From: an uncultured Treponema sp.
Lineage (GTDB): Bacteria > Spirochaetota > Spirochaetia > Treponematales > Treponemataceae
Assembly: GCA_964607295.1 (NCBI GenBank)
Contig: CAZSJX010000007.1
Coordinates: 18,026 to 82,025 of the forward strand
Direction: 5' to 3'
Length of the DNA stretch: 64,000 nt
Every line of letters begins with the position of its first letter. Position 1 is the first letter of the stretch. The notes under the pieces were generated by a model, which did not search any database, had not been told where the DNA came from, and worked only from the letters and a program-made list of their open reading frames with translations. Shown piece after piece: positions 15,143-45,504 of the stretch. The position numbers and the translations under genes are program-made.

Positions 15143-15356
15143 TAGCCTTAATTTTGGATTGTATGGTGCACTAAAAATAGTGTAAGGAGAGATGCAGCTG
15201 GCAAAAACGCTCTGTTTTGCTGCCGCGATAGCGGCAATGCTTAATAGTTCCAAGTCAAAACAGCGTGTAGAGGCAACTTCGTTGCTTCGGTTTTGACAGA
15301 TGTATCTCGACTGATAGCTTTTTTATACAGGATTATGATTGATTCAAAGTTAGTGG
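15143..15356 (+). mobile_element. Fold-back MITE-like repeat, copy A (long centre)
   Basis: Left end tagccttaattttg; core cggttttgacagatgtatctcgactgatagcttttttata; degenerate right end. Shares arms with copies B-F. Confidence 0.65.
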
Positions 15357-15439
15357 TAAATATAAAAGCGCCGGCTGCTGATTTAATCGGTAGTCTGCAC
15401 GTTAAGATTGTTTACTGTTTTTTATATACGGAGAATTTT

Positions 15440-16996
15440 ATGAGGAAATGCTATTTTTCTGCTGTAATCGCAATTTTGCTTATGGCTGTTTCGTGCATGA
15501 ATGTCGGCGGCTCGTCCGGAGCGGAAGGAGCTGTGCGTGTGGCTGTTCCGGGAAGCGGCTCGCGCGGGGCGTATACTCTTAGCAAGGACAATGCGAGCTT
15601 ATACAAGGTTACGCTTCTGCTTGACGGAGAAGTTGAGGGAGAGCCTCAGACCGCATCTCCGGGGGGGGCGGACATAGTATTCGACGGTCTTGAGCCTGCG
15701 GAATACACAGTGCTTGTTGAAGCGTTTGACGCAGGCGGCGTGATGCTTGCAAGAAAAAGCCAGAGTATAAAAGTCGCCGCCGGAAAAACCGCGGACTGCT
15801 CCATAGTGCTTGCCCTGCTAGGAAGCCGCGCCCTGGACACTGGATATTTGCTGTGGAAATATAGCTCTGATCCTTCATACAGTTTTGGCAGGTCGGAATC
15901 TGTAGAATCCTTTAACGGTGGAGTTGGATATTGCTATGGAGAGCCTTTTGGAGCTGCGGAGGACTTGGATTCAAACTGGTATTTTGTAAGTAAAAGTAAA
16001 GGAAGTGATAATGGCACAGTATATAGAAATGATGCCAATACACAACTATTTTCTATAATATCTGGTATTAACGAATTTTTCACAGACCCTCTTTATTACG
16101 ATGAAACAGAAGATGCTCTGTGGTTTGCAAACTATGCGAATAATAAGCTTAATCTTTCAAAAAACAAAAATCCTTCATCTCTTTCTGGTTCTGGCAGCCT
16201 TGATATGAAGGAAGTCAGCGGATTTGATTTTACTGATAGATTCGGTTTTGCATTTGCAGTTCAGGGAAACGATATTTATATTGTATATACAGACTTGACA
16301 AATTATTATCTTCAGCGCGGAACTCTTTCTGGAGACGGGCCGTTTACATTTGTGCCTGTAGGCTCTGCGAAGTCTGCCGAAGACATGGGACTTTCCGGGG
16401 CTATTACAGACGTTGCTATTCTTTATGACGGAACTGTCTATGCGCTTGTTTCAAATGTTGGAAGCGATGCCGGGGATTCTGGTTATATTGACGATATGTT
16501 TATTAACCCTAGCGGCGGCACATTCTACAGCCGCGGCGCGCTTGTAAAGATTGAAGGCACGAATTCCGGCTTTAGGGTTGTGGATGTGCTTGGCTGGACA
16601 AATTCCGCAAGAAAGATAAGCCCTGCTGGAGGCGCTGCTGATGAATATGACTCTGATGTTTTGCTGCAGCCGATTAACGCCTATATTCCTTCTCTTTCGG
16701 AAAGCAATGGCAAATTCTACGGCCCGCGCAGGTTTGTAGCCATAAAGCCAAAGGAAATCGCCATAGCTGACTGCGGCGCGAATTTTGTAATGCCTGATAA
16801 AACCTTTGGAAAAGCAGGAAAAATGTTTGAGAAAAACAGGGTTGTAACAGTGAGCCTGTATGATTTTGCCGTCAGCAGTGTAAAAAAACTTGACGGTATA
16901 AAATTCATGAATCTTACGATAAGCGGCGGCTCAGGATCAACTTCTGGCTACATATATGCGTATGACTGTAAGGGTGAAGAAATAGAAGAACGCTAG
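15440..16996 (+). CDS. Hypothetical surface lipoprotein (Treponema paralogous family type)
   Basis: Start moved to the ATG at 15440 (RBS ggaga); lipobox LMAVSC; C-terminal FYGPRRFVAIKPKEIAIADCG motif. Confidence 0.75.
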   Translation: MRKCYFSAVIAILLMAVSCMNVGGSSGAEGAVRVAVPGSGSRGAYTLSKDNASLYKVTLLLDGEVEGEPQTASPGGADIVFDGLEPAEYTVLVEAFDAGGVMLARKSQSIKVAAGKTADCSIVLALLGSRALDTGYLLWKYSSDPSYSFGRSESVESFNGGVGYCYGEPFGAAEDLDSNWYFVSKSKGSDNGTVYRNDANTQLFSIISGINEFFTDPLYYDETEDALWFANYANNKLNLSKNKNPSSLSGSGSLDMKEVSGFDFTDRFGFAFAVQGNDIYIVYTDLTNYYLQRGTLSGDGPFTFVPVGSAKSAEDMGLSGAITDVAILYDGTVYALVSNVGSDAGDSGYIDDMFINPSGGTFYSRGALVKIEGTNSGFRVVDVLGWTNSARKISPAGGAADEYDSDVLLQPINAYIPSLSESNGKFYGPRRFVAIKPKEIAIADCGANFVMPDKTFGKAGKMFEKNRVVTVSLYDFAVSSVKKLDGIKFMNLTISGGSGSTSGYIYAYDCKGEEIEER

Positions 16997-17080
16997 TTTT
17001 GTAAAAGGCGCATAAAATTGGCAAAAATCAGGTTTTGCACTTGATGAAAACGCTAAAATAATATATCATGCTTTTCATTC

Positions 17081-17155
17081 GGCGCTTTAGCTCAGCTGGA
17101 TTAGAGCATCTGCCTTCTAAGCAGAGGGTCGACGGTTCGAGCCCGCCAAGCGTCA
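17081..17155 (+). tRNA. tRNA-Arg (anticodon TCT)
   Basis: Acceptor stem ggcgctt/aagcgtc, D arm gctcagctggattagagc, anticodon arm tctgc-cttctaa-gcaga, T loop ttcgagc (one T-stem mismatch). Confidence 0.93.
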
Positions 17156-17158
17156 CTA

Positions 17159-17195
17159 GTCCGTTTTCAGGCTTCTGGAGACGGGCTTTTTTTTT
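17159..17195 (+). terminator. Intrinsic terminator after tRNA-Arg
   Basis: Stem gtccgtttt...gagacgggc followed by T9. Confidence 0.75.
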
Positions 17196-17432
17196 GCTTT
17201 GCGGACGCTTGGAACGGCGCAATATGACGGCTTAACGTTGCAATTTTCCTATAAAATCACTATATTTAATGCAGCACTGAACGGTCTGAATAATGATTGC
17301 TCTGTGCTGGCCGCTGCATCTGGTGTTTTAGTATTTCAGGCGAGTACAAAAAATATTTGGAAAACGCGGAAAATCGCTTCAAGTGTTGACCGGCACTTTC
17401 TTAAGCATATCTACTTTTATATGAGGATTCCT

Positions 17433-18275
17433 ATGGCAGAGACACTGCTTTCAATTCAAGGCTTATGCACTTCTGTTGGCGAAAAACAGATTCTTAAAAA
17501 TATTTCACTGGATATTGCTCCCGGCGAAATCCATGTGCTTATGGGACCGAACGGCGCCGGAAAGTCCACCCTGGGCTACACGCTTATGGGCAGCCCTGAA
17601 TACTCTGTAACCGGCGGAAAAATCATCTTTAACGGACAGGACATAACTTCTGATTCCGCGGACAAGAGGGCAAAGGCCGGAATTTTCCTTAGCTTTCAGG
17701 AGCCGCTTGAAGTTCCGGGGGTTTCACTTGAGTCGTTTATCCGCTCGTCAATGCAGCAGGTTACAGGACAGAAGGTGAAGCTGATGCAGTTTGCCCGGGA
17801 ACTTGATAAGAACATGGATCTTTTAAAGATGGACCACGGCTATGCTTCCCGCGATTTAAACGTAGGATTCAGCGGCGGAGAAAAAAAGAAGAGCGAGATT
17901 CTCCAGCTTTTAATGCTCAGACCGCGCCTTGCGATTCTTGACGAGACAGATTCCGGACTTGACGTTGACGCATGCCGCATTGTTTCCGAGGGAATTAAAA
18001 AGTACATGGAGGCTACAGGCGGCTCTTTGATTGTCATAACGCATTCGACCCGCATCCTTGAAAACCTTAGCGTGGACAAGACGCACATAATGGTGAAAGG
18101 CCGGCTTGTTCACACCGGAGACGGAAGCCTTGTCCAGAAAATAAACGAGGAAGGCTTTGACAGCTTTATTCCGCAGGAAATCAAGGATGAGCAGCGAAAG
18201 GAGCAGCTTGCGGCGGCAGCAAAGGCGGCGATGGACGCAGTAAAGATGAATGCTGCCAGCGGCGGCCTTAACTAG
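17433..18275 (+). CDS. sufC: Fe-S cluster assembly ATPase SufC
   Basis: MGPNGAGKST, LNVGFSGGEKKK, ILDETDSGLDVDA. Start moved to the ATG at 17433 (RBS gagg). Confidence 0.95.
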   Translation: MAETLLSIQGLCTSVGEKQILKNISLDIAPGEIHVLMGPNGAGKSTLGYTLMGSPEYSVTGGKIIFNGQDITSDSADKRAKAGIFLSFQEPLEVPGVSLESFIRSSMQQVTGQKVKLMQFARELDKNMDLLKMDHGYASRDLNVGFSGGEKKKSEILQLLMLRPRLAILDETDSGLDVDACRIVSEGIKKYMEATGGSLIVITHSTRILENLSVDKTHIMVKGRLVHTGDGSLVQKINEEGFDSFIPQEIKDEQRKEQLAAAAKAAMDAVKMNAASGGLN

Positions 18276-18283
18276 GAATATTT

Positions 18284-19699: not shown

Positions 19700-19710
19700 G
19701 GGGCTACAGA

Positions 19711-20760: not shown

Positions 20761-20770
20761 CGAGGAAAAT

Positions 20771-22015: not shown

Positions 22016-22158
22016 AAAAACAGGGTAATCCACGGTGCGGACTGTTCTATTTTGTTCGCACATCTGTTTTTGCAGCATTTCAATGAAGCGCGGATAAAGC
22101 TCTAAAAAGTACAGCCTGCGCTTCCTTGGAAACAGCATATAATGATTGAGGTATTGTC

Positions 22159-22632
22159 ATGGACTTGAAGTCGCTTTATCAAGAAATTCTTAACGAGCAT
22201 AATCTGAATCCAACTCACAAGGGAGTTATGGAAAACCCAACGTTTACGCTGCAGGGCGTGAATCCGAGCTGCGGAGACAACATTTATCTTCAGCTGAAGG
22301 TCGATGAAAACGGAATAATTTCAGAAGGAAGTTTCAACGGCTCCGGATGCGCGGTAAGCCAGGCTTCTGTTGACATGATGCTTGACGACATAATTGGAAA
22401 GAAAAAGGACGAGGCGTTGCGTCTTGCTTCGCTTTTTATGGATATGATTCACGGAAAGGTAGAGGATGATGATGTCCTTGAGGAGCTGGATGAGGCGGCC
22501 AGCCTTAAGAACATAAGCAAAATGCCCGCCCGTGTAAAATGCGCGGTTCTTGGCTGGCACACAATGGAAGAGATGCTAAAAAACGGAAAGTCTTCCGGGC
22601 AGGGAAGCGCGGAGCATTGCACAACAGAGTGA
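22159..22632 (+). CDS. sufU: SUF system NifU-family protein SufU
   Basis: NPSCGD, GCAVSQAS, PARVKCAVLGW. Confidence 0.93.
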   Translation: MDLKSLYQEILNEHNLNPTHKGVMENPTFTLQGVNPSCGDNIYLQLKVDENGIISEGSFNGSGCAVSQASVDMMLDDIIGKKKDEALRLASLFMDMIHGKVEDDDVLEELDEAASLKNISKMPARVKCAVLGWHTMEEMLKNGKSSGQGSAEHCTTE

Positions 22633-22751
22633 AAAAAATAACGGTAAGGAGGGAGACGGCTGGCAAAAACACTCAGTCTTTCGGTTTTGACAGACATATC
22701 TCGACTGTTAGCTGTTTTTTTATACTGAATTATAGTTAACTCAAAATTAGG
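22633..22751 (+). mobile_element. Fold-back MITE-like repeat, copy B (left end missing, abuts the sufU stop)
   Basis: ggctggcaaaaac...cggttttgacagacatatctcgactgttagctgttttttt-atactgaattatagttaactcaaaattagg. Confidence 0.7.
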
Positions 22752-22836
22752 AATAAAATTTAACATTTTTCAATAAAAACAAAGATTTGCTATTGACTTT
22801 TTTTTTGTAGTTTTGTATTTTATATGCACATTGCAT

Positions 22837-22907
22837 TCCCCGATTGTGTAATGGTAGCACTTGAGATTCTGGTTCTCACTGTGGGGGTTCGAATCCTCCT
22901 TGGGGAA
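22837..22907 (+). tRNA. tRNA-Gln (anticodon CTG)
   Basis: Acceptor stem tccccga/ttgggga, anticodon arm tgaga-ttctggt-tctca, T arm ggggg-ttcgaat-cctcc. Confidence 0.93.
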
Positions 22908-22943
22908 TATAAGCTGGACGGCTAGTCTGGCTTTTTTTGTTTT

Positions 22944-23015: not shown

Positions 23016-23018
23016 TTT

Positions 23019-23045: not shown

Positions 23046-23136
23046 ATGCCTTTTTTACTAGAAACTCATAGGAAAAAATGATAGGCTTTCGGGGCATATA
23101 AAAATCAGTACTTTTCATTTGAATTGGAGTAGGTAA

Positions 23137-25078: not shown

Positions 25079-25168
25079 ACCTGATGCCATTTAGGTTTTA
25101 AGTCCTGCGCCATGCAGGGCTTTTTTTTTTGCCTTGAAAATCGTTTCCAAGTCCTGTATTATTTTCCC

Positions 25169-26653
25169 ATGCAAAAAAAAGTTACGCTTGCTCTTTTTAT
25201 TGTGATTGTTGCGGCCGGTGCTGTCGCGTTTATTGCAAAAAACTATTTCTATAAGCCAGATAAAAATAAGGCTTCGGCCTCTGTGGTTGTGCCTATGTCC
25301 AGTTCAGCGGAGGAAAAGAAGAATTCCTCATTTTCTTCAATTGAAGAGGATGCTTCTCTTGTGTCTCTGGTTCCGCTCGATGACAATGAAACTTTGATAA
25401 GCATTGTCAGCATGGACTTTGACGGAGACGGCTTTGATGACCAGGTGAATGCAATTAGGACAATGGACAGCCCGTACCTTGCAATTCTGGTGGGGCTTTA
25501 CAATCCTCAGAAAAATGCCTATGAAAGAAAGGCTGTTATTGCTACGGAAGTTTCCCAGGCGCAGACTTTTTCCTATACCGGCATTGACTTGACGGGCGAG
25601 CATAGGACTGCGCTTGTTTACCAGGGATTTGCGGATAACGGGGATTCTGTGCTGCAGGCGTTCTTTGTTTCAAACGAGGGCGGAAAATTCTCGCTTTCAA
25701 AAATTGCTGACCTTCGCGGAGACGGAACAATTTTTATCCAGCAGCTTGACCGCTATGATGCCTACGAGAGATCAAAGGCAAACGGCGCAAGCTTTCCTAT
25801 CTGGGTCTATACTTCTGACACGGAGCGGCCTGGAAGCGCGGACCAGCTTCAGCTCCAGTATGAGTGGAAACATTCAGAGAACTGCTATGTAAAAACAAGA
25901 ACTGTCCGTGTCGCAGGAAGCAGAATCGCGGCCAAAGAGCTTGCGAAAATTCAGGACGGAACTGTCGCAACGTTTGCAGGATTCTTGAACGGACTTTGGT
26001 ATATGCCTCAGGCTGATGGAAGTTTGCGGTATGTTTTCTTTGACTACGGCGCGCGCGAGATTATTTTTTTCAAGGATGACACGGAAGAAGTCTACAAGTG
26101 GGCGCACAGCAATATCCGCCGCAACGGAATTTATCTTTCCACTATAAATCAGGAGATTGAGAATCTTCAGCGGAGAATTGATATAAGCCTTAAGAGCACC
26201 GAGGAAATTCATATAAGAATTCAAGATGACGTGCGCATGATTATAAGTGAAAATGCTATGTGGGACGGAAACTATAAAAAAATCGGAAAGAGTATGTTCC
26301 TGCAGAAGTCTTTGTCAAAGGCGGCCGGCGGTTCTTTGGATTTTGGAAAAGAAAGCGAATGGAAAATTCCGGACGGATCCACTGTAAAGATGCATGACGG
26401 AAAATATTCAATGAAAGCCGAAGGCTTTCTGGAGACAGGGCTTTACTCATGCTTTGAAAGCGGCGGCTCCTCTTTTGTGCAGTTCCGTCCTGATTCAGAG
26501 AACAATGCTCGTTTTAGCGGAGTTTACAGGATAACAGCAGAGGAAAACAGCACGTCCCAGAAGAAATATGTTCTGCAGCCGTGCAGAACAACTGGCAATG
26601 GAATAGTCGCTCATGAGTCCCGTCCTGTTGTCCTTATGATTTTGTCCGACTGA
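25169..26653 (+). CDS. Pallilysin-related adhesin-like protein
   Basis: N-terminal membrane anchor; DGFDDQVNAIR...VGLYNP...TFSYTGIDLTGEHR pattern recalled from the Treponema family so annotated. Confidence 0.6.
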   Translation: MQKKVTLALFIVIVAAGAVAFIAKNYFYKPDKNKASASVVVPMSSSAEEKKNSSFSSIEEDASLVSLVPLDDNETLISIVSMDFDGDGFDDQVNAIRTMDSPYLAILVGLYNPQKNAYERKAVIATEVSQAQTFSYTGIDLTGEHRTALVYQGFADNGDSVLQAFFVSNEGGKFSLSKIADLRGDGTIFIQQLDRYDAYERSKANGASFPIWVYTSDTERPGSADQLQLQYEWKHSENCYVKTRTVRVAGSRIAAKELAKIQDGTVATFAGFLNGLWYMPQADGSLRYVFFDYGAREIIFFKDDTEEVYKWAHSNIRRNGIYLSTINQEIENLQRRIDISLKSTEEIHIRIQDDVRMIISENAMWDGNYKKIGKSMFLQKSLSKAAGGSLDFGKESEWKIPDGSTVKMHDGKYSMKAEGFLETGLYSCFESGGSSFVQFRPDSENNARFSGVYRITAEENSTSQKKYVLQPCRTTGNGIVAHESRPVVLMILSD

Positions 26654-26656
26654 CTA

Positions 26657-26820
26657 TTAGCCTCAATTTCGAGTTAACTATAATTCAATATAAAAAATAG
26701 CTAACAGTCGAGATGCGTCTGTCAAAACCGTCCGATATTCGGGCTGCACAGTTTTTTTTGCCAGCCGCTTCTTTCTTTCCCGCTGTTTTTTTTGCTCAAT
26801 ATTAAAACTCGAAATTAAGG
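26657..26820 (-). mobile_element. Fold-back MITE-like repeat, copy C (complete)
   Basis: Terminal inverted repeats cctcaatttcgagtt / aactcgaaattaagg (15 bp, one mismatch) and inner arms aaaaaatagc / gctgttttttt. Fills the gap between two convergent stop codons. Confidence 0.8.
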
Positions 26821-27456
26821 TCAGTAGACAAGGTTTATATTGTCAACAAGAATTGACCCGGAAAAGCTTTTTCCTTTTATCAGGAATGAAATGCTCCTTA
26901 TGTCCTCTTTCTCTGTCAGGCCGGAAACTGAATTTCCGCTTATATCAGTTATTCCGTGGAGCAAATCGAAATAGACGTTTATGTTTTCGCCTATGCCAAT
27001 AAGAACTTCCTGCGTCCTTGAGGCTGTGTGGCAGGGACCGCCCTGTGTTTCTATGGCAACAGCAAGCGGATTCTGGCAAGTGTTGTTTATGTCTGCGGTC
27101 AATGCCTTTGCATGAGTCCAGTCTTTCTGGGCAGGATTTTCTGTTGTGAAAGCCGCCTCTGCTCCCTCGGGGATTTTTGCGAAGCTCCATTGCGCGCAGA
27201 AATCTCCTTCTGTGCTCCATTCTTCCGTGGTGTCTGTGTCTATGGAATATCCTCCGCCTTTTGCTCCGTCCATGGCCTGCCAGAAGTTTTCTTCCTCAAA
27301 GCCGTCCAGAAGCTCAAGTGTTCCTTCCGGAGCCGGATTGTTGATAGGAAAGATTGTTTCCGCCGTGTCAAGGCCTGAATTGCCTGTAGTGGAAACGCAC
27401 GCCGCTGTGACTGCCGCCGCTATAAAAATTGACGCTGCTTCTAGGGTTTTTGTCAT
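26821..27456 (-). CDS. Hypothetical lipoprotein with a putative carbohydrate-binding (jelly-roll-like) domain
   Basis: Lipobox-like AVTAAC; LLDGFE...WSTEG...KDWTHAKALTADINN...ILVDNINL pattern resembles galactose-binding-like modules. Confidence 0.5.
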   Translation of the reverse strand: MTKTLEAASIFIAAAVTAACVSTTGNSGLDTAETIFPINNPAPEGTLELLDGFEEENFWQAMDGAKGGGYSIDTDTTEEWSTEGDFCAQWSFAKIPEGAEAAFTTENPAQKDWTHAKALTADINNTCQNPLAVAIETQGGPCHTASRTQEVLIGIGENINVYFDLLHGITDISGNSVSGLTEKEDIRSISFLIKGKSFSGSILVDNINLVY

Positions 27457-33205: not shown

Positions 33206-33206
33206 G

Positions 33207-33413
33207 CTATTGAATTTCCTTTTGGAGTTCTAATATTTTTTCAAGCGGAAGATTTGTAACCATTGAGATTTGCTCATGTGTTCCTATATTTTCCTTGAGC
33301 ATTTTCTTCGCAGTTTCAATAATTTTCTGATTTGCCATGTCTTGCGCCATATCCTTGGCAAGCTCCTTGGCTCTTTCGTTTGATTGAATGGCCATTTCCT
33401 GTTCCCATGTCAT
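33207..33413 (-). CDS. Putative internally translated small Rpn C-terminal protein (RpnS-like, 68 aa)
   Basis: In-frame ATG (MTWEQE) preceded by GGAGG at 9 nt spacing inside the Rpn gene. Confidence 0.5.
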   Translation of the reverse strand: MTWEQEMAIQSNERAKELAKDMAQDMANQKIIETAKKMLKENIGTHEQISMVTNLPLEKILELQKEIQ

Positions 33414-34049
33414 AAACCTGTGCCTCCACTGCGCATTTGTTTTTACACGATCTACTAGCGCGGAAAGCCTGTCAGTGAAACCGGAGCTCGGCTCCTTTCC
33501 GCAGAGATACTTGAAAAATGATTTCAGCTCTTCGGATTTCATTGTATCATACTTTTTTGCATTGAAAAAGACATTTACAGTTCCGTCGTTCATCAGAAAT
33601 TCCTTGTCCTCGTCTGCACGGTAGCGGAATGTGTATACAGGAAATCCTTTTCCGAAGGCGTCACCCATGCACAGAAAGATAACATAGCTTTCGTTAAGCA
33701 CATCATAGCCGGCTCCGTGCTGCACATTGTCAACGTCCATCAGCCCTTGGTAATAGCGCGCCCGTTTTGCGAGGGAAGTGCTGCGCGTGGTCTGAATCTC
33801 TATGTCGAACGAGCGTCCTGCTTCGTCTTTTACATAAACATCGAATCTTATTCCGCGCGAGATGAAGTCAGTTTTCATCGATTTTTCGGCGGCTGGCTTT
33901 TCAATTCTGTCGATTTTTATGTTTAGAAGAATCTCAATGAGATGCCTGCAGATGTCCGGGTTGTCCTCAAGGACTTTGCAGAAGATGAAGTTGTCAGCGA
34001 GTGTGAGCCGCTCCCATTTTTGAGCCGGCGTAAGTTCATGTCTTTGCAT
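33207..34049 (-). CDS. Rpn family recombination-promoting nuclease / PD-(D/E)XK putative transposase
   Basis: LADNFIFCKVL, GIRFDVYV...FDIEIQ, KRARYYQ, YVIFLCMGDAFG. Start moved to ATG 34049 (MQRHEL). Confidence 0.88.
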   Translation of the reverse strand: MQRHELTPAQKWERLTLADNFIFCKVLEDNPDICRHLIEILLNIKIDRIEKPAAEKSMKTDFISRGIRFDVYVKDEAGRSFDIEIQTTRSTSLAKRARYYQGLMDVDNVQHGAGYDVLNESYVIFLCMGDAFGKGFPVYTFRYRADEDKEFLMNDGTVNVFFNAKKYDTMKSEELKSFFKYLCGKEPSSGFTDRLSALVDRVKTNAQWRHRFMTWEQEMAIQSNERAKELAKDMAQDMANQKIIETAKKMLKENIGTHEQISMVTNLPLEKILELQKEIQ

Positions 34050-34187
34050 TTTTCTTTCCTGTTTTTCTTGAAACTTTCTATAACTATATTGTCGCAAAAA
34101 TGCAAAAAATGCGTTGTTTAAAATAAAGTTTTTATCGCTAGAAAGAGTTGTGTAATTTTTTAGATTAAAAAAAGACTGTTTAATAAA

Positions 34188-34324
34188 TAGTCTTAATTTC
34201 GAATTTTATAATACATTAAAAAACAGCGTGCAGGGCAGCCCTGTTGCCTTGCGCTTTTGACAGGCGCATCTTAACTGGCAGCTGTTTTTTATATGAAATT
34301 ATAGTTAACTCGAAATCATGGCTA
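34188..34324 (+). mobile_element. Fold-back MITE-like repeat, copy E (directly upstream of the Rpn gene)
   Basis: tagtcttaatttcgaatttt...aaaaaacagc...ttttgacaggcgcatcttaactggcagctgttttt...attatagttaactcgaaatcatggcta. Confidence 0.75.
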
Positions 34325-34348
34325 TTTTATCAGAACTCAACATTCCAT

Positions 34349-36931
34349 CTATTTGTACATTCCGTCTAAAAGCCTGTAGACCATATTGACTTTCTCTTTC
34401 CTTGAAATGTCAAGGCCGGAATCTTTTGTGTCGTCAATAAGCTTTTCGAGGGAAGCCAGGCTTTCGTTGAGCGCGGTTGTAAATCCTCTTGAAACCTTGA
34501 ACCAGTAAGTTCCGTTTCCGTCTGTAAACAGGCAGATGAAACCAAGCTCCTTTGAGGCTGATTTTGCGACAGTAATGCGCATTGTAAAATCAATGTTACT
34601 TAGCAGCTGCTCAAGCCCGCCGTTTTCAAAAATGTTTATGTTCATCTTTCGAGGCCATGATTTTTCTTCAGCCGGATTCAAGTTCAGCGTTTTTGCAATC
34701 TTGATTATGGTCTCCATTTTTTCGCCGGAAAGAAGCTTGTATCCGTTCTTCATGATGATTGAGCCTCTCATTCCGGCTGTGGCTTCCGTAAGCTTTTCGA
34801 TGCTTTCTCTTGAAACTGCGCTTTTAAATTCAGTCCACGGAAGAAGAAGCGTTTTTTTGCCCTTGACTTTTTTACATTCAAATGACTGCTCGCCGAATGA
34901 AACAAGATTTTCGTCTTTCTTTTTGTCTTCTTTTTTTGCGCCTTTTTTATTTTCCTGCTTTTCCTTCTTCTTTGCTTCTTTGGAAGAATTTTCCTTTTCC
35001 GCCCTGTTTTTTTCTTTTTCCGCGCGGATTCTGTTCAGGCTTTCTTCAAGGCCGGGACTTATCTGCTCAAGGATTCTCTTTGTAAGCGGAGAAACGCTCA
35101 TTGCGAACATTCTGCTTGTGCGCACAATTTCTCCTGCTACAATATAGACTGGATTCGCCTTGAACATGGAAGAGCCCGGATGAATTGAAATGTGGTCCTG
35201 CGTAAGGCTTCTGTAGTTTTCCCTTCCTTCGCGCACGCATACGAACTGAATCATTCCGCAGCCAATGCAGCAAAGGTAGTCATCCATTTTTCCGCTGCTC
35301 AGAATTGGCAGCTGAAGCTTTTGCGACACGATTTCCTCAAGCTGGATTTTTATGTTCTGGATTTCCGCCATTACACGCTCGTCAAGGTAGTTCTTTTTGC
35401 AGAAGGCCTCCTTGTTTTTCATTTCTGAATAAGTCCGGAACATTTTTACGTATGCAACAAAGTCTCCCTGCATATCCCTGAATGAATGGTGGGCCTGGCG
35501 CGCATCCATTTCCTCGCCGACAGGAAGCACAAAAGGAGACTGCGCGCTTAAGAATGAAGCTGCAATCAGAACTTCGTCCATTACATCAGGATAGCGCATT
35601 ATGCTTTCTACGATTATGCGGCTTATGCGCGGTTCAAGCGGAAACATGACCATAAGTTTTCCTATGGCGGAAAGGGAGCCGTCTTTTTCAAGAGCGCCCA
35701 GCATATTGAGTGTGTTTACTGCGCCTACAAGTCCTTCGTGCCCTGGAGGTGAAATAAAATCGAATTTTTCAAATTCTGTTATTCCAAGCTCTGCCATGCG
35801 CAGCACAACCTCGCTCAGGTCTGTCCTGTAAATTTCCTCGGTTGTGTATTCCTGCCGGCTTTCAAAGTCCTTGCGTGAATAAAGCCTGTAGCAGGTTCCC
35901 TCGCAAGTCCGTCCGGCTCTTCCTCTGCGCTGGTTGCAGCTTGCCCGGCTTACAGGCGTTTCCACAAGGCTTGAAGTGAATGTCTTCGGGCTGTAGAAAT
36001 TCAGCTTTGCAAGGCCGCTGTCAATTACTGTTGTGATTCCGTTTATCGTGATGGAGGTTTCTGCAATGTTCGTGCTTAGGACGACTTTCTTTTTTCCGAA
36101 CGGCGCGCTGTCAAAAACCCGCTCCTGCTCTTCTTTTGGAAGCCTTCCGTAAAGTGGAACAATATGGATTCTGCTTTTGAATGTGGAGCTGTACAGCCGC
36201 TGCATACAGTCCTTGATTACTTTTTCGCCCGGAAGAAATACAAGAATATCGCCAGTCTCTTTATTGTCCAGAACGCGGTCAATTGTCTTTTCTATTTTTC
36301 CAAGGATTGCATCAACGCCGGCTTCTGTTGTGGTTGTGGGCTTGGATTCAGGCGGATCATAGACCATTGCCACCGGAAATGTCTGCGTATCGATTGTGAT
36401 AATCGGGCAATTTCCAAAATATCTGCTGAATTTTTCTGCGTTCATTGTTGCCGAGCTTACAATTACTTTAAAGTCATGGCGCACCGCAAGAATCCGCTTT
36501 AGAAGTCCAAGCGTAAAGTCGATGTTCAGGCTCCGCTCATGGGCCTCGTCCACCATTATGACAGAATACTTGCTCATGTAGGGATCGAGCTTCATTTCCT
36601 GCAAAAGAATTCCGTCTGTCATGATTTTGATTTTTGTCGAAGGATCCGTCTTGTCCTCAAAGCGGACTTTGTATCCCACAAGCCCCGGATATTTTGTCTT
36701 TAGCTGCTTCGCAATGAACTCGCTTACACTTAGCGCCGCGATTCTTCTAGGCTGTGTTACGGCGATTGTTCCGGACTGCGAGTATCCGGCCTCATGAAGA
36801 ATTACAGGAAGCTGTGTTGTTTTTCCTGAGCCGGTGGGGCTTTGTACTATTATAACCTGATTGCTTTCAAGCGCTTCAAGGATTCTGTCTTTCTGCTCGT
36901 AAACAGGAAGTTTTTTGTAGTTTATTGACAT
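34349..36931 (-). CDS. hrpA: ATP-dependent RNA helicase HrpA (DEAH box)
   Basis: SPTGSGKTTQLP, TQPRRIAA, MVDEAHERSLNIDF, STNIAETSIT, QRRGRAGR. Confidence 0.9.
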   Translation of the reverse strand: MSINYKKLPVYEQKDRILEALESNQVIIVQSPTGSGKTTQLPVILHEAGYSQSGTIAVTQPRRIAALSVSEFIAKQLKTKYPGLVGYKVRFEDKTDPSTKIKIMTDGILLQEMKLDPYMSKYSVIMVDEAHERSLNIDFTLGLLKRILAVRHDFKVIVSSATMNAEKFSRYFGNCPIITIDTQTFPVAMVYDPPESKPTTTTEAGVDAILGKIEKTIDRVLDNKETGDILVFLPGEKVIKDCMQRLYSSTFKSRIHIVPLYGRLPKEEQERVFDSAPFGKKKVVLSTNIAETSITINGITTVIDSGLAKLNFYSPKTFTSSLVETPVSRASCNQRRGRAGRTCEGTCYRLYSRKDFESRQEYTTEEIYRTDLSEVVLRMAELGITEFEKFDFISPPGHEGLVGAVNTLNMLGALEKDGSLSAIGKLMVMFPLEPRISRIIVESIMRYPDVMDEVLIAASFLSAQSPFVLPVGEEMDARQAHHSFRDMQGDFVAYVKMFRTYSEMKNKEAFCKKNYLDERVMAEIQNIKIQLEEIVSQKLQLPILSSGKMDDYLCCIGCGMIQFVCVREGRENYRSLTQDHISIHPGSSMFKANPVYIVAGEIVRTSRMFAMSVSPLTKRILEQISPGLEESLNRIRAEKEKNRAEKENSSKEAKKKEKQENKKGAKKEDKKKDENLVSFGEQSFECKKVKGKKTLLLPWTEFKSAVSRESIEKLTEATAGMRGSIIMKNGYKLLSGEKMETIIKIAKTLNLNPAEEKSWPRKMNINIFENGGLEQLLSNIDFTMRITVAKSASKELGFICLFTDGNGTYWFKVSRGFTTALNESLASLEKLIDDTKDSGLDISRKEKVNMVYRLLDGMYK

Positions 36932-38100
36932 CTAGCTTTTCCTTTTATTTGTTCCATAAGTTTTTTTCTTTCTGAAAGATACGGTTTCCATTCTGAGGTT
37001 TCTTCCAGTGTATTTAGAAATTCATCATTCAGTTTTTTTATGATGAAGTATTTCTCATCGGTAATCAGCGTTGTAACCAGAACAGGATTCACCCAGGAAA
37101 TTCTTGCTCCGCCGGAATCTTTCTCGAAGACAACCTGCGATATATAGCCGTCTCCTGTGTATTCACGCCGCCCCGCTGGATTTGAAAATTCGGGGTTTCT
37201 TCTTTGTCCGCTTATTGTGTTTCCCATGGCATAGAAGATAATCTTTCTTGGAGTTCCGTTGCATGATATAATCTCCCATTCCTTTGCAATATGCGGATGG
37301 TTTATCCAGAGAACATCAACGCCGGAATCTATGAGAGCATGATAAAATTTTTTTTGACTTTCAGCAATGCCCGGCACATACTCCTCTTCCGCGCAGTGAA
37401 AGCTTAGAACCAGCAGATCGCACTCTTGCTTTTTTTGTTTAATCAGCTCAATAAGCTGCCCGCGCGCCTTTTTTTCAGGCCTGACAAAATCAAAGTATTC
37501 TGTGTCTGTCCAGCGGTTCGCAATTTCCGTTACAGCGGCAAAAAGAATTTTCCATCCGTTTTTTTCAATCGGAACAAATTCCACTGGCTCTCCGCGTGAC
37601 TTCTTGATTCCGGCGAAATACAGCTCCATGCCCTGCGCTGAAAGCTGGCTCTGTTTTTTTTCAAAGTATCTTCTTGTGGACATGAGTCCGCTTTTTCCGA
37701 AGTCATTGCAGTGGTTGTTCGCAAGGCTGAACACATTGAATCCGGCTTCAACAGCGGCATCCGCATAGCTTTCTTTTACGCTGAATCTAGGGTAGGTGGA
37801 AAAATCCTTCTGGTCGTCTACGGAAGTTTCCAGGTTTGCGAACGAGAGATCCGCCTGCTTTACAATGTCCTCGATGTCTTTGTAAATGTCGCTGAATCTG
37901 CCCCTTGTGTTTTCGGAGTGCGCCATTATGTCACCCGCGAATGTAAGCAGAAGCTTTCCGTCCATAAAGCTCCGCTGTTCAGCAGGCTCTTCTTCCTCAT
38001 GGCTTTGAACGTCCGGCTCCTTTTGTGCTGAGGATGCGCACGAGGCGAGCAGCACTGCGGAAAAAAATGCAGCGGTAAAAAAATTGCTTCTCATCGGCAT
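36922..38100 (-). CDS. CapA family metallophosphatase-fold lipoprotein
   Basis: TFAGDIM, ANLET, SLANNHCNDFG, HPH, YAMGN; lipobox LLASC. Confidence 0.85.
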   Translation of the reverse strand: MPMRSNFFTAAFFSAVLLASCASSAQKEPDVQSHEEEEPAEQRSFMDGKLLLTFAGDIMAHSENTRGRFSDIYKDIEDIVKQADLSFANLETSVDDQKDFSTYPRFSVKESYADAAVEAGFNVFSLANNHCNDFGKSGLMSTRRYFEKKQSQLSAQGMELYFAGIKKSRGEPVEFVPIEKNGWKILFAAVTEIANRWTDTEYFDFVRPEKKARGQLIELIKQKKQECDLLVLSFHCAEEEYVPGIAESQKKFYHALIDSGVDVLWINHPHIAKEWEIISCNGTPRKIIFYAMGNTISGQRRNPEFSNPAGRREYTGDGYISQVVFEKDSGGARISWVNPVLVTTLITDEKYFIIKKLNDEFLNTLEETSEWKPYLSERKKLMEQIKGKARCQ

Positions 38101-38128
38101 TTATTATACACGTAAAGCCGCTGTCTTG

Positions 38129-38983
38129 CTAGGGAAGAGGCTGCGGAAATGGCAGGCCGGTGCTTTCTTGCATTTCAGTTTCCGTCTTGAGCTCCTGAAT
38201 CTGTGTGAACATATTCTCTGTCTGGCTTTCTACTGCCTCTTCAATGGAGTCGTCAAGCGCGCTGAAAAAATCTATGCCGGTCCGGGCCTCAACTTCGTTC
38301 ACTGAAACTTTGTACTGCAGAATTCCGCCTTCGCATTTTTGGTTCGGCATTATAAAGCCTATGGATTCCCATTCCCCGGCGGAGCTTTTTGCAAGAAGAA
38401 CCTTGTAGAAGAATTCTGGAACCCGCACATTGCTTTCGCCTATCGCGCTGTATTCCATGGGCGGATTTTCAAGCACGGGGCCTGTTGCCACTACCAGAAA
38501 GTCCAGCTCCTGCGCATATTTTCTGACCTGGGCTTCAAGCTCCTTCCAGATTCCCCTGTTGAACTGCGGAACCTGGGGCGCGATGTTGCTCATCAGAAAA
38601 CTTTCGTCCTCGCTTTTCCCGCTCCATGCCATATCCGCCGCCGGAGCCAGATGCCCCCTGTCGTATCCGCTCGCCTTGTAATCCGAAAGCTTTGCGCTTC
38701 CTGCTGAAAGCCCGTTGTCTTCCCTGAATTTATTTGTCCGCCTTGCGTTCTTTATAAGTTTTTCCGGGGTGATTATGTAGCTTACCCATTCAGCGTTTTT
38801 GTAGCTGTCCCTGTAGCACAGCGAGAACCCTGTGTATGACGCAAGATCATGTCCGTCCGCGCTTTTGCCGCATGATGTGGCAGGACACAGCGGAATTGCC
38901 AGTTTGGAAAGCTCTTCCTGGGCGGATGCCGTCGCTATCAGAATTGTTATGACAGCAAGAGCCGCCATCCCTTTATGTTTCAT
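38129..38983 (-). CDS. DNA/RNA non-specific endonuclease (NucA/Serratia family), secreted
   Basis: SGYDRGHLAPAAD catalytic motif, SNIAPQ, FNRGIWKELE; signal peptide. Confidence 0.92.
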   Translation of the reverse strand: MKHKGMAALAVITILIATASAQEELSKLAIPLCPATSCGKSADGHDLASYTGFSLCYRDSYKNAEWVSYIITPEKLIKNARRTNKFREDNGLSAGSAKLSDYKASGYDRGHLAPAADMAWSGKSEDESFLMSNIAPQVPQFNRGIWKELEAQVRKYAQELDFLVVATGPVLENPPMEYSAIGESNVRVPEFFYKVLLAKSSAGEWESIGFIMPNQKCEGGILQYKVSVNEVEARTGIDFFSALDDSIEEAVESQTENMFTQIQELKTETEMQESTGLPFPQPLP

Positions 38984-39017
38984 CTTTTTTCTCCCATTAA
39001 AAAGTCAAGAAGATTGT

Positions 39018-39070
39018 TTCAACTGTTAGCTATTTTCTATATTGAATTATAGTCAATTCGAAATTAGAGG
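39018..39070 (+). mobile_element. Fold-back MITE-like repeat, copy F (right arm only)
   Basis: caactgttagctattttctatattgaattatagtcaattcgaaattagagg matches the right arm of copies B-E. Confidence 0.65.
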
Positions 39071-39283
39071 TAAAAATCTCCGTAGCCTTAAGCTATTATA
39101 ATTCCTCATGGCCTGCGCTATCAACAGGGGAAAATTCTTCTCCTGAATGTTTTCCCTTTTCTCCAGAATGAAAAAAAATCTTCGGACGCTGAAAATTTCA
39201 AAAAAACGGCGTTTGTGCAACTGATTGCGCTCTTTTGATGCTCCGTGTTTGACAGGTGGAAAAAATCATTTTAAAATCGTGGC

Positions 39284-40792
39284 ATGAATATTTACGAATC
39301 TATTAATGCGCTTGCGGGCTACGGGCTTGCGGCCGGCCTCATTGAAGAGGATGATGTTGTCTATACAAAAAACCGCCTGCTTGAGCTTTTTTGCCTTGAC
39401 GGTTTTGAGAACAATCGGCAGGCTGAAGAGATTCCTTCCGTGGAAATCAGCGGTCTTGAGGACATTCTTAGAACCATGCTGGACTATGCGGTGGAAAAAA
39501 AGATTATAGAGGACGGAGTTGTGTTCCGCGATTTGTTCGACACTAAGATAATGTCGGTTCTTGTTGCCCGTCCGTCCGAGGTGCGCAGGAAGTTTTTCTC
39601 GCTTTACAAAAAGTCCCCGGAGGAGGCTACAGGCTGGTATTATAAATTCAGCCAGGACACTGACTATATCAGACGCTACAGGATATGCCGGGACTTGAAG
39701 TGGAAGACATCCACTGAGTACGGCGACATCGACATTACAATCAACCTTTCAAAGCCGGAAAAAGACCCGAGGGCAATCGCAGCTGCAAGAAATGCTCCGC
39801 AGGGAGGCTATCCTGAGTGCCTTCTGTGCAAGGAGAACGAGGGATACGCAGGCCGCGTGAACCATGCTGCGCGCCAGACACACAGGATAATTCCAGTTGA
39901 GCTTGCCGGAAAAATGTTCGGCCTTCAGTATTCGCCCTATGTTTATTACAACGAGCACTGCATTGTTTTCAGCATGGAGCATGAGCCGATGAAAATCTGC
40001 CCGGAAACTTTCCGTTATCTGTTCGGCTTTATAAAGCTTTTTCCTCACTATATAATCGGAAGCAACGCTGATTTGCCGATTGTAGGAGGCTCGATTCTTT
40101 CGCATAACCATTTCCAGGGCGGAAACTATGAGTTCCCGATGGCCGGCGCGCCAGTTGAAGAGACTTTTGTAGTTCCGGGGTTTGAAGATGTGCGCTGCGG
40201 AATTGTAAAGTGGCCTATGAGCGTGATCCGCCTTGACGGAACTGATTCAGAGAGGGTCTGCCTGCTTGCCGACAGGATTCTTGAAAAGTGGCGCTCGTAC
40301 ACAGACAGCGATGCGTTTATTTTTGCAGAGACTGATGGCGCAAAGCATAACACAATCACGCCTATCGCAAGAATGAGGGGCGCGGAATTCGAGCTTGACC
40401 TTGTTTTGCGCAACAATATAACGACCGGCGAGCATCCGCTTGGAGTTTTTCATCCGCACGCGGAGCTTCACCATATAAAGAAGGAGAACATCGGGCTTAT
40501 TGAAGTGATGGGACTTGCTGTTCTTCCTTCAAGGCTTAAGAATGAGCTTGCCGGAATTGAGGATGCGGTTTTGGACGGCAGGGACTTCCGTGACGATCAG
40601 GAGATTGGAAAGCACTACGACTGGGTGAAGTCTTTTGTTCCGAAGTACAAAAGCATAACAAAAGACAATATTGGAAAAATTCTTCAGGACGAGGTTGGAA
40701 TTGTGTTCGCAAAAGTTCTTGAGGATGCTGGTGTGTTCAAAAGAAACCCTGAGGGCAAAAAAGCATTTGAAAAATTCATAAAATCGTTGTAG
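39284..40792 (+). CDS. galT: UDP-glucose--hexose-1-phosphate uridylyltransferase (Firmicutes-type GalT)
   Basis: ITINLSKPEKDP, CLLCKENEGY, YNEHCIV, GSNADLPIVGGSILSHNHFQGG, NIGLIEVMGLAVLP. Confidence 0.93.
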   Translation: MNIYESINALAGYGLAAGLIEEDDVVYTKNRLLELFCLDGFENNRQAEEIPSVEISGLEDILRTMLDYAVEKKIIEDGVVFRDLFDTKIMSVLVARPSEVRRKFFSLYKKSPEEATGWYYKFSQDTDYIRRYRICRDLKWKTSTEYGDIDITINLSKPEKDPRAIAAARNAPQGGYPECLLCKENEGYAGRVNHAARQTHRIIPVELAGKMFGLQYSPYVYYNEHCIVFSMEHEPMKICPETFRYLFGFIKLFPHYIIGSNADLPIVGGSILSHNHFQGGNYEFPMAGAPVEETFVVPGFEDVRCGIVKWPMSVIRLDGTDSERVCLLADRILEKWRSYTDSDAFIFAETDGAKHNTITPIARMRGAEFELDLVLRNNITTGEHPLGVFHPHAELHHIKKENIGLIEVMGLAVLPSRLKNELAGIEDAVLDGRDFRDDQEIGKHYDWVKSFVPKYKSITKDNIGKILQDEVGIVFAKVLEDAGVFKRNPEGKKAFEKFIKSL

Positions 40793-40830
40793 TATGTGGA
40801 GATTTTAAAATATCATGCACGGAGATTAAA

Positions 40831-42856: not shown

Positions 42857-42867
42857 GCCGTGGTGTC

Positions 42868-43437
42868 TTACAGAATTCCGAGATGATTAAGAAGTATTTT
42901 TATTCCAATCAGTATTAAGATTGTTCCTCCTGCAATATCCGCTTTTTTCTCGTACCTGTTGCCGAATACGCTTCCGATTTTTACTCCGGCCGCAGAAAAG
43001 CAGAATGTTATTGTGCAGATAAAAAGGCTTGCAAGGATTATCTCTTTCAGAGTGTCAAGCAAAAGTCCGAATGTTATTCCCACTGCAAGCGCATCTATGC
43101 TGGTGGCGACTGCCATTACGAGCATTGTTTTCAGCGCGAATGAGTTGTCGACTTTTTCACATTCACTGGAGAATGTCTCCCGGATCATGTTTGCGCCTAT
43201 CGCAATTAAAAGGAAAAATGCAATCCAGTGGTCAAAATTTTCTATGTAGTATTTGAATCTTGAGCCTAGAATCCAGCCTAAGAACGGCATCAGGGCCTGA
43301 AAACCGCCAAACCAGAAGCCAGCAATGCACATCTCCTTGGCAGAAATGTTTTTTGACGCAAGACCCTTGCAGATTGAAACAGCGAAGGCATCCATGCTTA
43401 GCCCTACTGCTAAAATGAATAATTCCAAGACTGACAT
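42868..43437 (-). CDS. mntP: Manganese efflux pump MntP family
   Basis: AVGLSMDAFAVS, FGGFQALMP, ATSIDALAVG; six hydrophobic helices. Confidence 0.92.
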   Translation of the reverse strand: MSVLELFILAVGLSMDAFAVSICKGLASKNISAKEMCIAGFWFGGFQALMPFLGWILGSRFKYYIENFDHWIAFFLLIAIGANMIRETFSSECEKVDNSFALKTMLVMAVATSIDALAVGITFGLLLDTLKEIILASLFICTITFCFSAAGVKIGSVFGNRYEKKADIAGGTILILIGIKILLNHLGIL

Positions 43438-43499
43438 GGCGGTTATTATATTTCCCCAATAAAGTTGTGTAAAGGTAATTTTTTTTTCAGTGCTCTAAA

Positions 43500-43536
43500 A
43501 AAATCAAGCCCCAGCACCCGCTGAGGCTTGAAAAAT
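43500..43536. terminator. Bidirectional terminator-like hairpin upstream of mntP
   Basis: aaaaaaatcaagccccagc-acccgctgaggcttgaaaaa. Confidence 0.6.
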
Positions 43537-43795
43537 AAAGGAGTTCTTATGAAGAAAGTAAGAGGTCTCTTGTCTTTCAATAATAACAACATAATTCCAT
43601 TAATTTGGTTACAGCAGTTTAAAGAAAAACTAGAAAAAATTTTAATGCCGCTGGATAAAAAAAGCACGAATAAAAAAAAATCGGCCTTAACTCCAGTGCA
43701 AGAATGCATAAGGTGTTAGACCGATTTTATTTGTGCAGAGTGCTTGATTTTAAGGCGCTTGGACTATAATCGCCTTGTCTTGGAACAGGAATATT

Positions 43796-45283
43796 TTATT
43801 TTCCTATTTTGTACCGGGCTGTTGTTATTACGTGGCCATCGCTATAAACATCAAACCAAATTTCTTTCTTTGAGCTTGTGTCGAGAGCCGCATAGAATTC
43901 TTCAAGGCTTGAAACTTTTTTGTCGTTTACAGCGCAGATAATATCCCCTTCCTGCAGCCTTAGAGCCGCGGCAGGAGACTTTTCAAATACTCTTGCAACA
44001 ACAATTCCCTCAACATTTTCTTTTTCAATATTGAGCCTTTTTCTTAAGTCTGAAGTAAGAGGAGAGGCTACAAATCCAGGCCAAAGCTTTGAGTCGTTTG
44101 CTGTAACTTCCTCGTTGCGCTCATCAATCTTTACAGAAATCTCTTTTACAGTTTTTCCGCGCAGAACTTTTATAGACGTGGTTTTTCCCGCCGGAATGCC
44201 TCCGATTTCACGGATAAGCTGATCCACTGATTTTATATCGTGTCCGTTCAGCCCGATTATAAAGTCGCCTGGAAGAATTCCGCCTTTGTATGCAGGTCCG
44301 TCAAGAAATACCTGGCTTGCAAGCGCTCCCTGCTGCTTTTTGTCTATTCCAAGCTGCTCCTTGTATTCCTCTGTAGTTTCAACAAGGCTTATTCCAACCC
44401 AGCCATAAGTTATTTTTCCTTTGTCAATGAACTGGTTTATAGATTCCTTTATGTTGTTGATTGGAATTGAAAATCCAAGGCCCTGTGAACCGCCGGAATT
44501 TGAAGCAATCCAAGTATTTATTCCGATTACTTCTCCGGAAATATTTACAAGCGGACCGCCGGAATTTCCCTGGTTGATAGCCGCGTCAGTCTGGATAAAG
44601 TCGCTTATTGAGCCGATTTGTCCGCCGCTTCTTCCTGTCGCGCTTACAATTCCCTGTGTTACAGAAGCAAAGTATCCGAGCGGACTTCCAAGCGCAAGAA
44701 CGATATCTCCCTGCTGGATTGAGCTGCTGTCTCCGAGCTTTGCGATTGTAATTGTCTTGTCGCTGCTTTCAAATGAAACAAGAGCGATGTCCATGCGCTC
44801 GTCTTTTCCAACAAGCTTTCCTTCAAACTCGCGCTCATCGTTGAGCTTTATTTTTATTGAAGTGGCGTTTCCTACAACATGGTTGTTTGTAAGGACGTAA
44901 ACTGTGTTTCCGCTTCTTTTTACAATTACGCCGGAACCAAGCGCGGACTGCTCAAGTTCTTTTGTTCTGTCATCTTTTTCTTCACCGCGTGGAATTCCAA
45001 AGAAAAATGGAAGGTCGTCAAACGGAGAGAATGTCTTTACTTTTGTCTTTTCCTTAATATCAACTTCTACAACTGCCGGAAGAACTTGCGAAGTTATAGA
45101 GCGGAACGAGTTCTGCAGAGCCTGAGTGACTGCAAATGAATCCTGCGGAATCTGTGCGGCTGGTGTTTCTGCGAATGCGACAGATGCGGAGCCTTTGTTT
45201 ACCTTGCATGAAAGCGAGAATATTCCGGCTGCCATCATCGCGGCTGCGGCTGTGTACGCAATTTTTTTAATCATTTTTTTCAT
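43796..45283 (-). CDS. htrA: Do/HtrA (DegP) family serine endopeptidase with two PDZ domains
   Basis: GSGVI, LTNNHVV, DIAL, QTDAAINQGNSGGPL catalytic triad motifs; PDZ repeats. Confidence 0.92.
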   Translation of the reverse strand: MKKMIKKIAYTAAAAMMAAGIFSLSCKVNKGSASVAFAETPAAQIPQDSFAVTQALQNSFRSITSQVLPAVVEVDIKEKTKVKTFSPFDDLPFFFGIPRGEEKDDRTKELEQSALGSGVIVKRSGNTVYVLTNNHVVGNATSIKIKLNDEREFEGKLVGKDERMDIALVSFESSDKTITIAKLGDSSSIQQGDIVLALGSPLGYFASVTQGIVSATGRSGGQIGSISDFIQTDAAINQGNSGGPLVNISGEVIGINTWIASNSGGSQGLGFSIPINNIKESINQFIDKGKITYGWVGISLVETTEEYKEQLGIDKKQQGALASQVFLDGPAYKGGILPGDFIIGLNGHDIKSVDQLIREIGGIPAGKTTSIKVLRGKTVKEISVKIDERNEEVTANDSKLWPGFVASPLTSDLRKRLNIEKENVEGIVVARVFEKSPAAALRLQEGDIICAVNDKKVSSLEEFYAALDTSSKKEIWFDVYSDGHVITTARYKIGK

Positions 45284-45340
45284 ATTAAATTAAAACCTCC
45301 TGATTTTTGAAGTTTCTCTGTGCTGAAAATTTCTTTACTA

Positions 45341-45504
45341 CCCATAATTTCAAGTTAACTATAATTCAATATAAAAAAATAGCTGACAGTTGAGATGCGT
45401 CTGTTAAAAACGTCCGGTATTCGGGCTGCACAGTTTTTTTTGCCATCCGCCTCTCTGACTGCCACTATTTTTTTATTCACTATTAAAACTCAAAATTAAG
45501 GCTA
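45341..45504 (-). mobile_element. Fold-back MITE-like repeat, copy D (closest to copy C)
   Basis: caagttaactataattcaatataaaaaaatagctgacagttgagatgcgtctgttaaaaacgtccggtattcgggctgcacagttttttttgcc...aaaactcaaaattaaggcta. Confidence 0.8.

Follow-up and report, generated by a model that had tools for sequence, protein, structure and literature searches.

Six lineage-specific fold-back repeats in an uncultured gut Treponema form a family that most probably consists of miniature inverted-repeat transposable elements

The 64,000 nucleotides (nt) analysed here, called the window throughout, are positions 18,026 to 82,025 (forward strand) of contig CAZSJX010000007.1 in GenBank assembly GCA_964607295.1, from an uncultured Treponema sp. 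that is close to Treponema succinifaciens (FliG 92% identical). Six related repeats, copies A to F, lie between its genes. Copy A (15145..15356, minus strand) has an ABC-transporter operon ending on one side of it and a TdpA_C-like lipoprotein gene on the other, and copy B (22633..22753, minus), which is upstream of tRNA-Gln and tRNA-Glu, begins right after the stop codon of nifU. Copy C (26660..26820, plus) separates two convergent genes, a pallilysin-related adhesin gene (25112-26653) and a 211-amino-acid open reading frame (ORF; 26821-27456, minus), and the neighbours of copy D (34190..34322, minus) are a DEAD/HA2 helicase gene, whose 3' end faces it, and a PDDEXK_2 (Rpn-like) gene, which faces it with its start. 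Copy E (39017..39071, minus) is located between an Endonuclease_NS gene (PF01223; 38129-38983, minus) and galT (39284-40792, plus), and copy F (45341..45502, plus) between the divergent genes htrA (43796-45283, minus) and fliG (45603-46877, plus). [quoted passage not shown] The family itself appears not to have been described before; the element is of an ordinary kind.

A profile built on an alignment of the six copies listed in an initial annotation of this DNA returned exactly six matches in the window, with E-values of 1e-17 to 1e-58, while the next-best match had an E-value of about 1. The matches extend over 15123-15375 (A, minus), 22612-22768 (B, minus), 26640-26843 (C, plus), 34168-34343 (D, minus), 39005-39088 (E, minus) and 45320-45526 (F, plus). 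A motif search of the window found a 26-nt core at four sites and a 31-nt motif at five, against 0.00 expected for each, and the terminal repeat GCCTTAATTTCGAGTTAAC at three sites against 0.01 expected. These counts and the profile confirm the annotated picture of six intergenic copies in both orientations, to which the window adds no further copy. A repeat finder returned the same families (D4-D8, pairs I1-I10).

The complete copies (A, C and F) measure 160-212 nt, and the whole set ranges from 55 to 212 nt. A terminal inverted repeat of about 16 nt, with the consensus GCCTTAATTTCGAGTT and usually adjoining TA, is present at ten ends. Both terminal repeats are found in A, C, D and F, although D lacks the right inner module; B has no right terminal repeat, and E comprises only the left ~55 nt. 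Of the six copies to which a shared layout had been ascribed, only A, C and F are complete; B, D and E are truncated or rearranged. Read from the outside inwards on the plus strand of C and F, the left half consists of (TA) GCCTTAATTTCGAGTT, aac TATAAT tcaatat and A6-7 yAGC, followed in the common orientation by the core TAACAG-tcgagatgcgt-CTGTCAAAA and a variable centre; the right half continues with TTTTTGCCAGCCG..., GCTGT6-8 and AACTCGAAATTAAGGC (TA). The inner arms, A6-AGC and GCT-T6-8, and the differing centres with small hairpins were found as originally described. An inward-facing TATAAT, previously assigned to every copy, is intact in five of the six and reads CATAAT in copy A. In the alignment, the left half is the part best conserved among copies, and it is retained in all truncated ones. 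TA directly flanks eight of the ten ends (TA frequency in the window, 4.3%), which is compatible with a target that contains TA (TAnTA, for instance) or with an element that itself has TA as its terminal bases. Within the TCGAG motifs, both terminal and in the core, the CpG changes more often among copies than any other position; mostly it has become TG or CA by transition (copies A, B, E and F), which may reflect methylation-linked decay or plain transition bias.

The right inner part is a degenerate inverted version of the left core (repeat family D5), so the whole element is one long imperfect palindrome rather than a pair of arms around an independent core. Complete copies fold as a single long imperfect hairpin, in which the partner of the left core is the right inner module and not the core itself. 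The RNA folding z-scores for the two strands are -4.9 and -4.8 for copy C and -4.1 and -5.4 for copy F, and the DNA folding z-score of copy C is -3.1. The element contains no conserved ORF, as had been noted: the only ones present are short (17-41 amino acids), and they lie in different frames or are missing in A and B. A candidate conserved peptide, MRLSK... in C, D and F, was rejected, its start codon being missing in A, its frame lost in B and a ribosome-binding site lacking. A protein search with a chimeric query of all stop-free six-frame pieces of the copies, aimed at ORFs wrongly annotated on other copies, returned nothing at E<=1.

Comparison of filled and empty sites supports insertion. 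Loci of the T. succinifaciens group were fetched via the FliG and pallilysin orthologues and included the complete genome CP091738.1. The element is absent at every orthologous site in this group: the profile found no copy in 231.6 kb of the relatives' loci (redundant, covering two syntenic regions), nor in loci L042-L046, and among the loci compared the terminal-repeat pattern is confined to those of the same species. The htrA-fliG spacer has 319 bp in the window and 152 bp in seven loci of the relatives, with nearly identical flanks, and the difference is exactly the 162-nt element of copy F plus a duplicated 5-bp TACTA (left 45336..45340; right 45503..45507). The empty site in these seven loci reads tttctTTACTAaaaataataaac (tttctTTACTAaaaat with flanks), and the filled site reads tttctTTACTA[CCCATAATTT...AAATTAAGGC]TACTAaaaat. 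At the site of copy C, the pallilysin gene of relatives L020, L022 and L042 overlaps a convergent gene of 217 amino acids by 4 nt, TTAA serving as shared stop codons, while in the window 167 bp separate the pallilysin gene from its convergent neighbour; copy C forms this spacer, and the C-terminal residues of both proteins are kept. The element is also absent from the relatives at B, D and E, where the spacers are otherwise unalignable: the site of B holds unrelated sequence in L020 and L023, and at the site of D, L020 keeps the PDDEXK_2 gene without the element, whereas L023 has neither. The comparison of empty and filled sites suggested in the initial annotation yielded a 5-bp target duplication at copy F, and the insertions are specific to this lineage.

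Contigs 96-100% identical to the window were recovered from a dozen or more metagenome runs (the species occurs, among others, in samples ERZ27271068, ERZ27271072, ERZ27237414 and SRR5626748), and all strains of the species, as defined by this identity, carry the copies at the same sites; copy A, for example, is present in L025-L027. An apparent empty site for copy E in L047 and L048 was rejected, as it lies in a recombinant stretch that is only 80-85% identical to the window left of 40813. To the right of that point these two strains are 96-98% identical to the window, and the divergent part to its left, compared over 35860-40813, comprises the helicase, PGA_cap, nuclease and galT genes; the mosaic looks like a foreign allele, with a second Treponema species as partner in the recombination. 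The elements of different strains differ by 1.9%, compared with 1.1% over all aligned sequence; with a divergence at least equal to that of the whole window, they give no indication of strong constraint. Comparison of 45400-45470, the centre of copy F, with L002 and L047-L050 places all between-strain differences of the 319-bp htrA-fliG spacer in the element's centre and its right inner part, and neither the left 80 nt nor the flanks vary. One of these is an adjacent double change, CTGTTAAAAA to CTGGCAAAAA, after which the left arm matches the complement of the right arm; it could stem from template switching within the palindrome or from conversion by another copy. Short-read contigs from many runs end inside copies, for example four of them at 45374 and seven at 26693-26724. 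Because C and F share only 26 identical bases at these break points, the breaks suggest further copies elsewhere in the genome, although mixtures of strains could also cause them.

The copies differ in their individual parts and surroundings. Copy A, full length at 212 nt, has an enlarged centre, a right terminal repeat GCCTTAATTTTGGATT at 15145-15160, a degenerate left repeat at 15341-15356 and its decayed -10 box at 15337-15332 (minus strand). Gene callers place the start of the adjacent lipoprotein gene at an ATG inside this copy (15335, the complement of the decayed CATAAT box), giving 553-554 amino acids in L025 and L026; the true start looks to be the ATG at 15441, which has GGAG just upstream. 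Copy B retains the left terminal repeat, TATAAT (22734-22729, minus strand), the core and the right inner module. Copy C, at 161 nt, is full length and nearest to the family consensus, with terminal repeats at 26660-26675 and 26805-26820, TATAAT at 26679-26684 and T8 runs at 26752-26759 and 26786-26793. Copy F (162 nt, TATAAT at 45360-45365) is likewise full length and belongs to the same subfamily. Copy D has terminal repeats at 34190-34205 and 34307-34322, TATAAT at 34303-34298 (minus strand), the core and a centre of its own, in which the hairpin cagggcagccctg is followed by T6. The hairpin plus T8 reported downstream in C and D accordingly exists in C, whereas the run in D has six residues. 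Copy E keeps a terminal repeat, TATAAT at 39051-39046, the A-run and the first core arm. Ten bases from its outer end, 39083-39128 (TAGCCTTAA-GCTA-TTATAATTC...GCTATCAACAG) looks like another left end, degenerate and oppositely oriented, but the profile gave no significant match, and we do not count it as an element fragment.

The Rpn gene that the initial annotation had placed beside copy E does exist, but according to Pfam it is the PF12784 PDDEXK_2 gene at 33207-34097 (minus) and adjoins copy D. The gene is variable at this place, being present in the window species and in L020 (18149-19063) and missing from L023, where 74 bp separate the TonB-dependent receptor gene from the helicase gene (16915-16990). 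We rejected an association between the PDDEXK_2 gene and the element, as the gene occupies this place in L020 with no element beside it, and none of the other five copies adjoins such a gene.

Some features of the copies would be expected of genes for a small RNA, the other possibility raised when the repeats were first noticed. Each copy would then carry its own TATAAT promoter and a hairpin/U-run terminator and yield an RNA of about 65-90 nt, and the copies would be scattered as members of a gene family are. Besides the prevalence of the inward-facing TATAAT, a hairpin followed by T6-T8 lies 60-80 nt downstream of it in C, D and F, and the conservation of the left half, its survival in truncated copies and its invariance between strains at F would suit a transcribed unit. 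The RNA analyses nevertheless speak against it. The 7-bp core stem with G-U pairs, put forward as a conserved hairpin, is intact only in B and C and has a mismatch in A, D and F, that is, in three of five copies; no pair shows changes on both sides, and the covariation score is below the shuffle mean (four to five sequences, low power). Over the stretch from TATAAT to the first U-run, RNAalifold gave a consensus of -2.1 kcal/mol, to which covariation contributed +0.12 kcal/mol, and found no compensatory pairs; the inner transcripts of B and D fold no better than shuffled sequences (z 0.0 and -0.6). Rfam 15 had no match on the element even at E<=10, the only passes in the window being three tRNAs, and its best match on copy C scored 16 bits against a gathering threshold of 55. 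Moreover, the promoter scan called no -35 box at B, C, D or F, 6-7 nt lie between the U-run and the nearest stable stem, and terminal inverted repeats with a target duplication are not features of small-RNA genes. We therefore consider a small-RNA family very unlikely. It is rather less improbable, yet still unlikely, that the copies are kept as regulatory cassettes, with A, B, C and D as bidirectional terminators and E, perhaps also F, as a portable -10 promoter, a reading compatible with a MITE origin. A to D each lie just past a gene 3' end and can be read as A-run, hairpin and T-run (a U-run in RNA) on both strands, and on the plus strand after nifU, copy B has a 16-bp stem reaching a U7 run (z -2.2). 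At the junction of copy E, a -35-like TTTACC (39074-39069) stands 17 nt from TATAAT, matches the consensus together with it at 10 of 12 positions and points at the Endonuclease_NS gene, whose ATG (38983) is 62 nt away; all copies, furthermore, are fixed in all strains. On the other hand, a simple terminator scan (loop limit 3-8 nt) flagged no copy, the stems are interrupted and the hairpins very long, relatives have no element at these sites, and divergence between strains is not reduced, while neutral old insertions would also be expected to become fixed. A narrower version, in which selection acts on the left ~90 nt (terminal repeat, TATAAT, A-run and core) as a portable promoter or leader module, draws on the conservation of this part, its presence in every truncated copy, its invariance at F and its position 62 nt upstream of the secreted-nuclease gene in E; we regard it as quite improbable, if somewhat less so than a small-RNA family. 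If true, the family would be a dispersed regulatory cassette or a source of short transcripts and not merely selfish DNA. Incidental effects on expression are nonetheless plausible from the sequence, either as promoter or as terminator, with copy E upstream of the nuclease gene as the best case. The promoter scan called a -35 box at A and E only, and the promoter remodelling suggested for several copies is plausible for E alone. A minus-strand promoter is predicted at 45550-45521, with copy F between it and htrA, and would plausibly place the whole copy F hairpin in the htrA leader.

Two other ways of spreading such sequences were weighed. The paired inverted units, strong fold-back and intergenic location recall elements of the repetitive extragenic palindromic (REP) or REPIN type, which a RAYT (Y1) transposase moves in the form of single-stranded hairpin DNA, and the initial annotation had used the term REPIN-like. 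The ends, however, form a pair of A+T-rich 16-mers, each the inverted repeat of the other, copy F has a 5-bp target duplication, the precomputed Pfam hits, which cover genes over most of the window, include no Y1_Tnp-type or RAYT family, and with ~160 nt and an interior of 60-130 nt the element seems to exceed REP doublets in size. Movement of this type is extremely unlikely. The repeats might alternatively be non-mobile, a duplicated intergenic piece that recombination or gene conversion multiplied within this 30-kb region. The six copies are all confined to 30 kb, and no copy occurs in the remaining ~48 kb of species sequence examined, which includes extensions of ~8 kb to the left and ~6 kb to the right obtained via identical proteins. 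Strain variation in F gathers at the centre, a pattern that conversion tracts might give. Yet every copy has a sharp boundary at the same inverted repeat, both orientations occur, the target duplication at F is exact, and the contig breaks inside copies fit more copies elsewhere, so that purely local spread is almost certainly not the explanation.

A MITE family accounts for the small size (inside the range of roughly 50-500 bp for such elements), the terminal inverted repeats, the missing coding capacity, the multiple copies, the absence from the sister species and the 5-bp duplication at copy F, and this part of the first interpretation was upheld. Several results weigh against it, among them the clustering within 30 kb just described. 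No transposase was found in the window or in ~14 kb beyond, consistent with the earlier remark that the window has no classical one, and the same sequence contains no autonomous element or insertion sequence (IS) with the same terminal repeats, for which a search had been advised. A collection with one genome per species, searched with the 31-nt degenerate motif that matches five of the six copies, gave one chance match in a coding region of an Eubacteriales metagenome-assembled genome. The JGI metagenome collection, searched with a 27-nt end motif, gave four A+T-rich chance matches, none of them recognised by the profile; judged by exact patterns, the species seems to be absent from both collections. 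Viral contigs, plasmids and phages gave no match. Among same-species strains, no difference in presence or absence and no ongoing transposition was seen. A clean target duplication is present in one of the six copies only: that of copy C is ambiguous because its flanks have diverged, and the flanks of A and D are not direct repeats.

Under the MITE interpretation, we infer that a transposase encoded elsewhere in the genome would bind both ends of the element and insert it into A+T-rich intergenic DNA, duplicating 5 bp of the target. The family would have spread in one gut Treponema lineage after its split from the T. succinifaciens group; the copies seen in the window would now be fixed, with B, D and E as decayed or truncated members. 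The inward TATAAT at one end could most simply be the remnant of the transposase promoter of a parent insertion sequence that suffered internal deletion, and the A-run, hairpin and T-run of the interior may be a by-product of the palindromic build. TATAAT or the interior might then incidentally act as a promoter (copy E) or as a terminator (copies A-D, at gene 3' ends).

Further repeats and a possible island were noticed outside the family. A tandem array at 1716-2224, with 2.8 units of 181 nt (88% matches), shares ~37 nt with the end of the neighbouring GAPDH gene (2188-3255, minus strand). A terminator-like hairpin (GGCATCCCTTTCGGAATGCC) occurs in every unit, and strain L039 aligns to the array in several registers at 91-95%, so that the copies or their number may vary. 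At 60122-60210 and 60581-60669, two 89-nt segments that are 92% alike form the starts of adjacent minus-strand ORFs and apparently encode signal-peptide-like N-termini; together with repeats of 82-83% at 60459-60581 and 61600-61691 that link neighbouring genes, they suggest local paralogues. Beyond position 64000, contig L035 (1-6800) carries a ResIII/Eco57I-type restriction-modification gene (1342 amino acids), a helix-turn-helix gene and a LysR regulator, and starts with what by appearance is the 3' end of a tRNA gene; the region may be a small genomic island.

With these repeats, a genus for which there are bulk MITE counts and few descriptions gains a well-delimited MITE family that has a clean empty site. 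Current ideas on mobile elements are unchanged by this. The family separates one uncultured gut Treponema lineage from T. succinifaciens and could be used as a lineage marker, and it would explain why short-read assemblies break in these spacers. The copies by htrA and fliG, the nuclease gene, the suf operon and tRNA genes, and the adhesin gene offer concrete spirochaete cases in which insertion may have changed expression.

Among insertion sequences, the IS1380 family in the ISfinder table has ends beginning with CC and target duplications of 4-5 bp that are often A+T-rich. The (G)CC... ends of the Treponema repeats and the 5-bp A+T-rich duplication at F resemble these features, and no such IS was found here. 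An IS1380-like parent would be a tentative candidate. The features in question are not given in PMC9330008. The ERIC/IRU and RU-type repeats and the RUP and BOX elements of Streptococcus pneumoniae are also imperfect intergenic palindromes of 100-170 nt that occur in full as well as truncated or expanded variants, with sequences and hosts unrelated to the present family. ERIC is not known to have a clear target duplication or a transposase; RUP is tied to IS630-Spn1 and shows a TA duplication. RU-1 and RU-2 have been reported as MITE-like intergenic repeats of 127 and 168 bp (PMC2759123). The REP/REPIN-RAYT system shares dispersed intergenic palindromic repeats in both orientations with the Treponema family, which differs from it by the A+T-rich ends that are mutual inverted repeats and by the presence of a duplication. 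REP units are not known to duplicate their target on insertion. [quoted passage not shown] A census of 2024 found the Spirochaetes Leptospira, Sediminispirochaeta and Treponema to be MITE-rich, with an average of 145 conserved MITEs per genome, mostly intergenic (PMC11602168). Since the species seems to be absent from the reference-genome collection that was scanned, the family is probably not part of that catalogue. The closest functional analogues are the Correia elements (NEMIS/CREE) of Neisseria, likewise non-coding, intergenic, multicopy units of ~100-160 nt with terminal inverted repeats adjoining TA. Their promoter boxes lie near the ends, the hairpin of the whole element is co-transcribed into mRNAs, and they have 26-nt repeats and are known to duplicate only TA. 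The Treponema family differs in its repeats of ~16 nt and the 5-bp duplication at F; the likeness is one of description, and a relation in sequence would not be expected. Correia units also carry an IHF site and functional promoters (PMC3184786).

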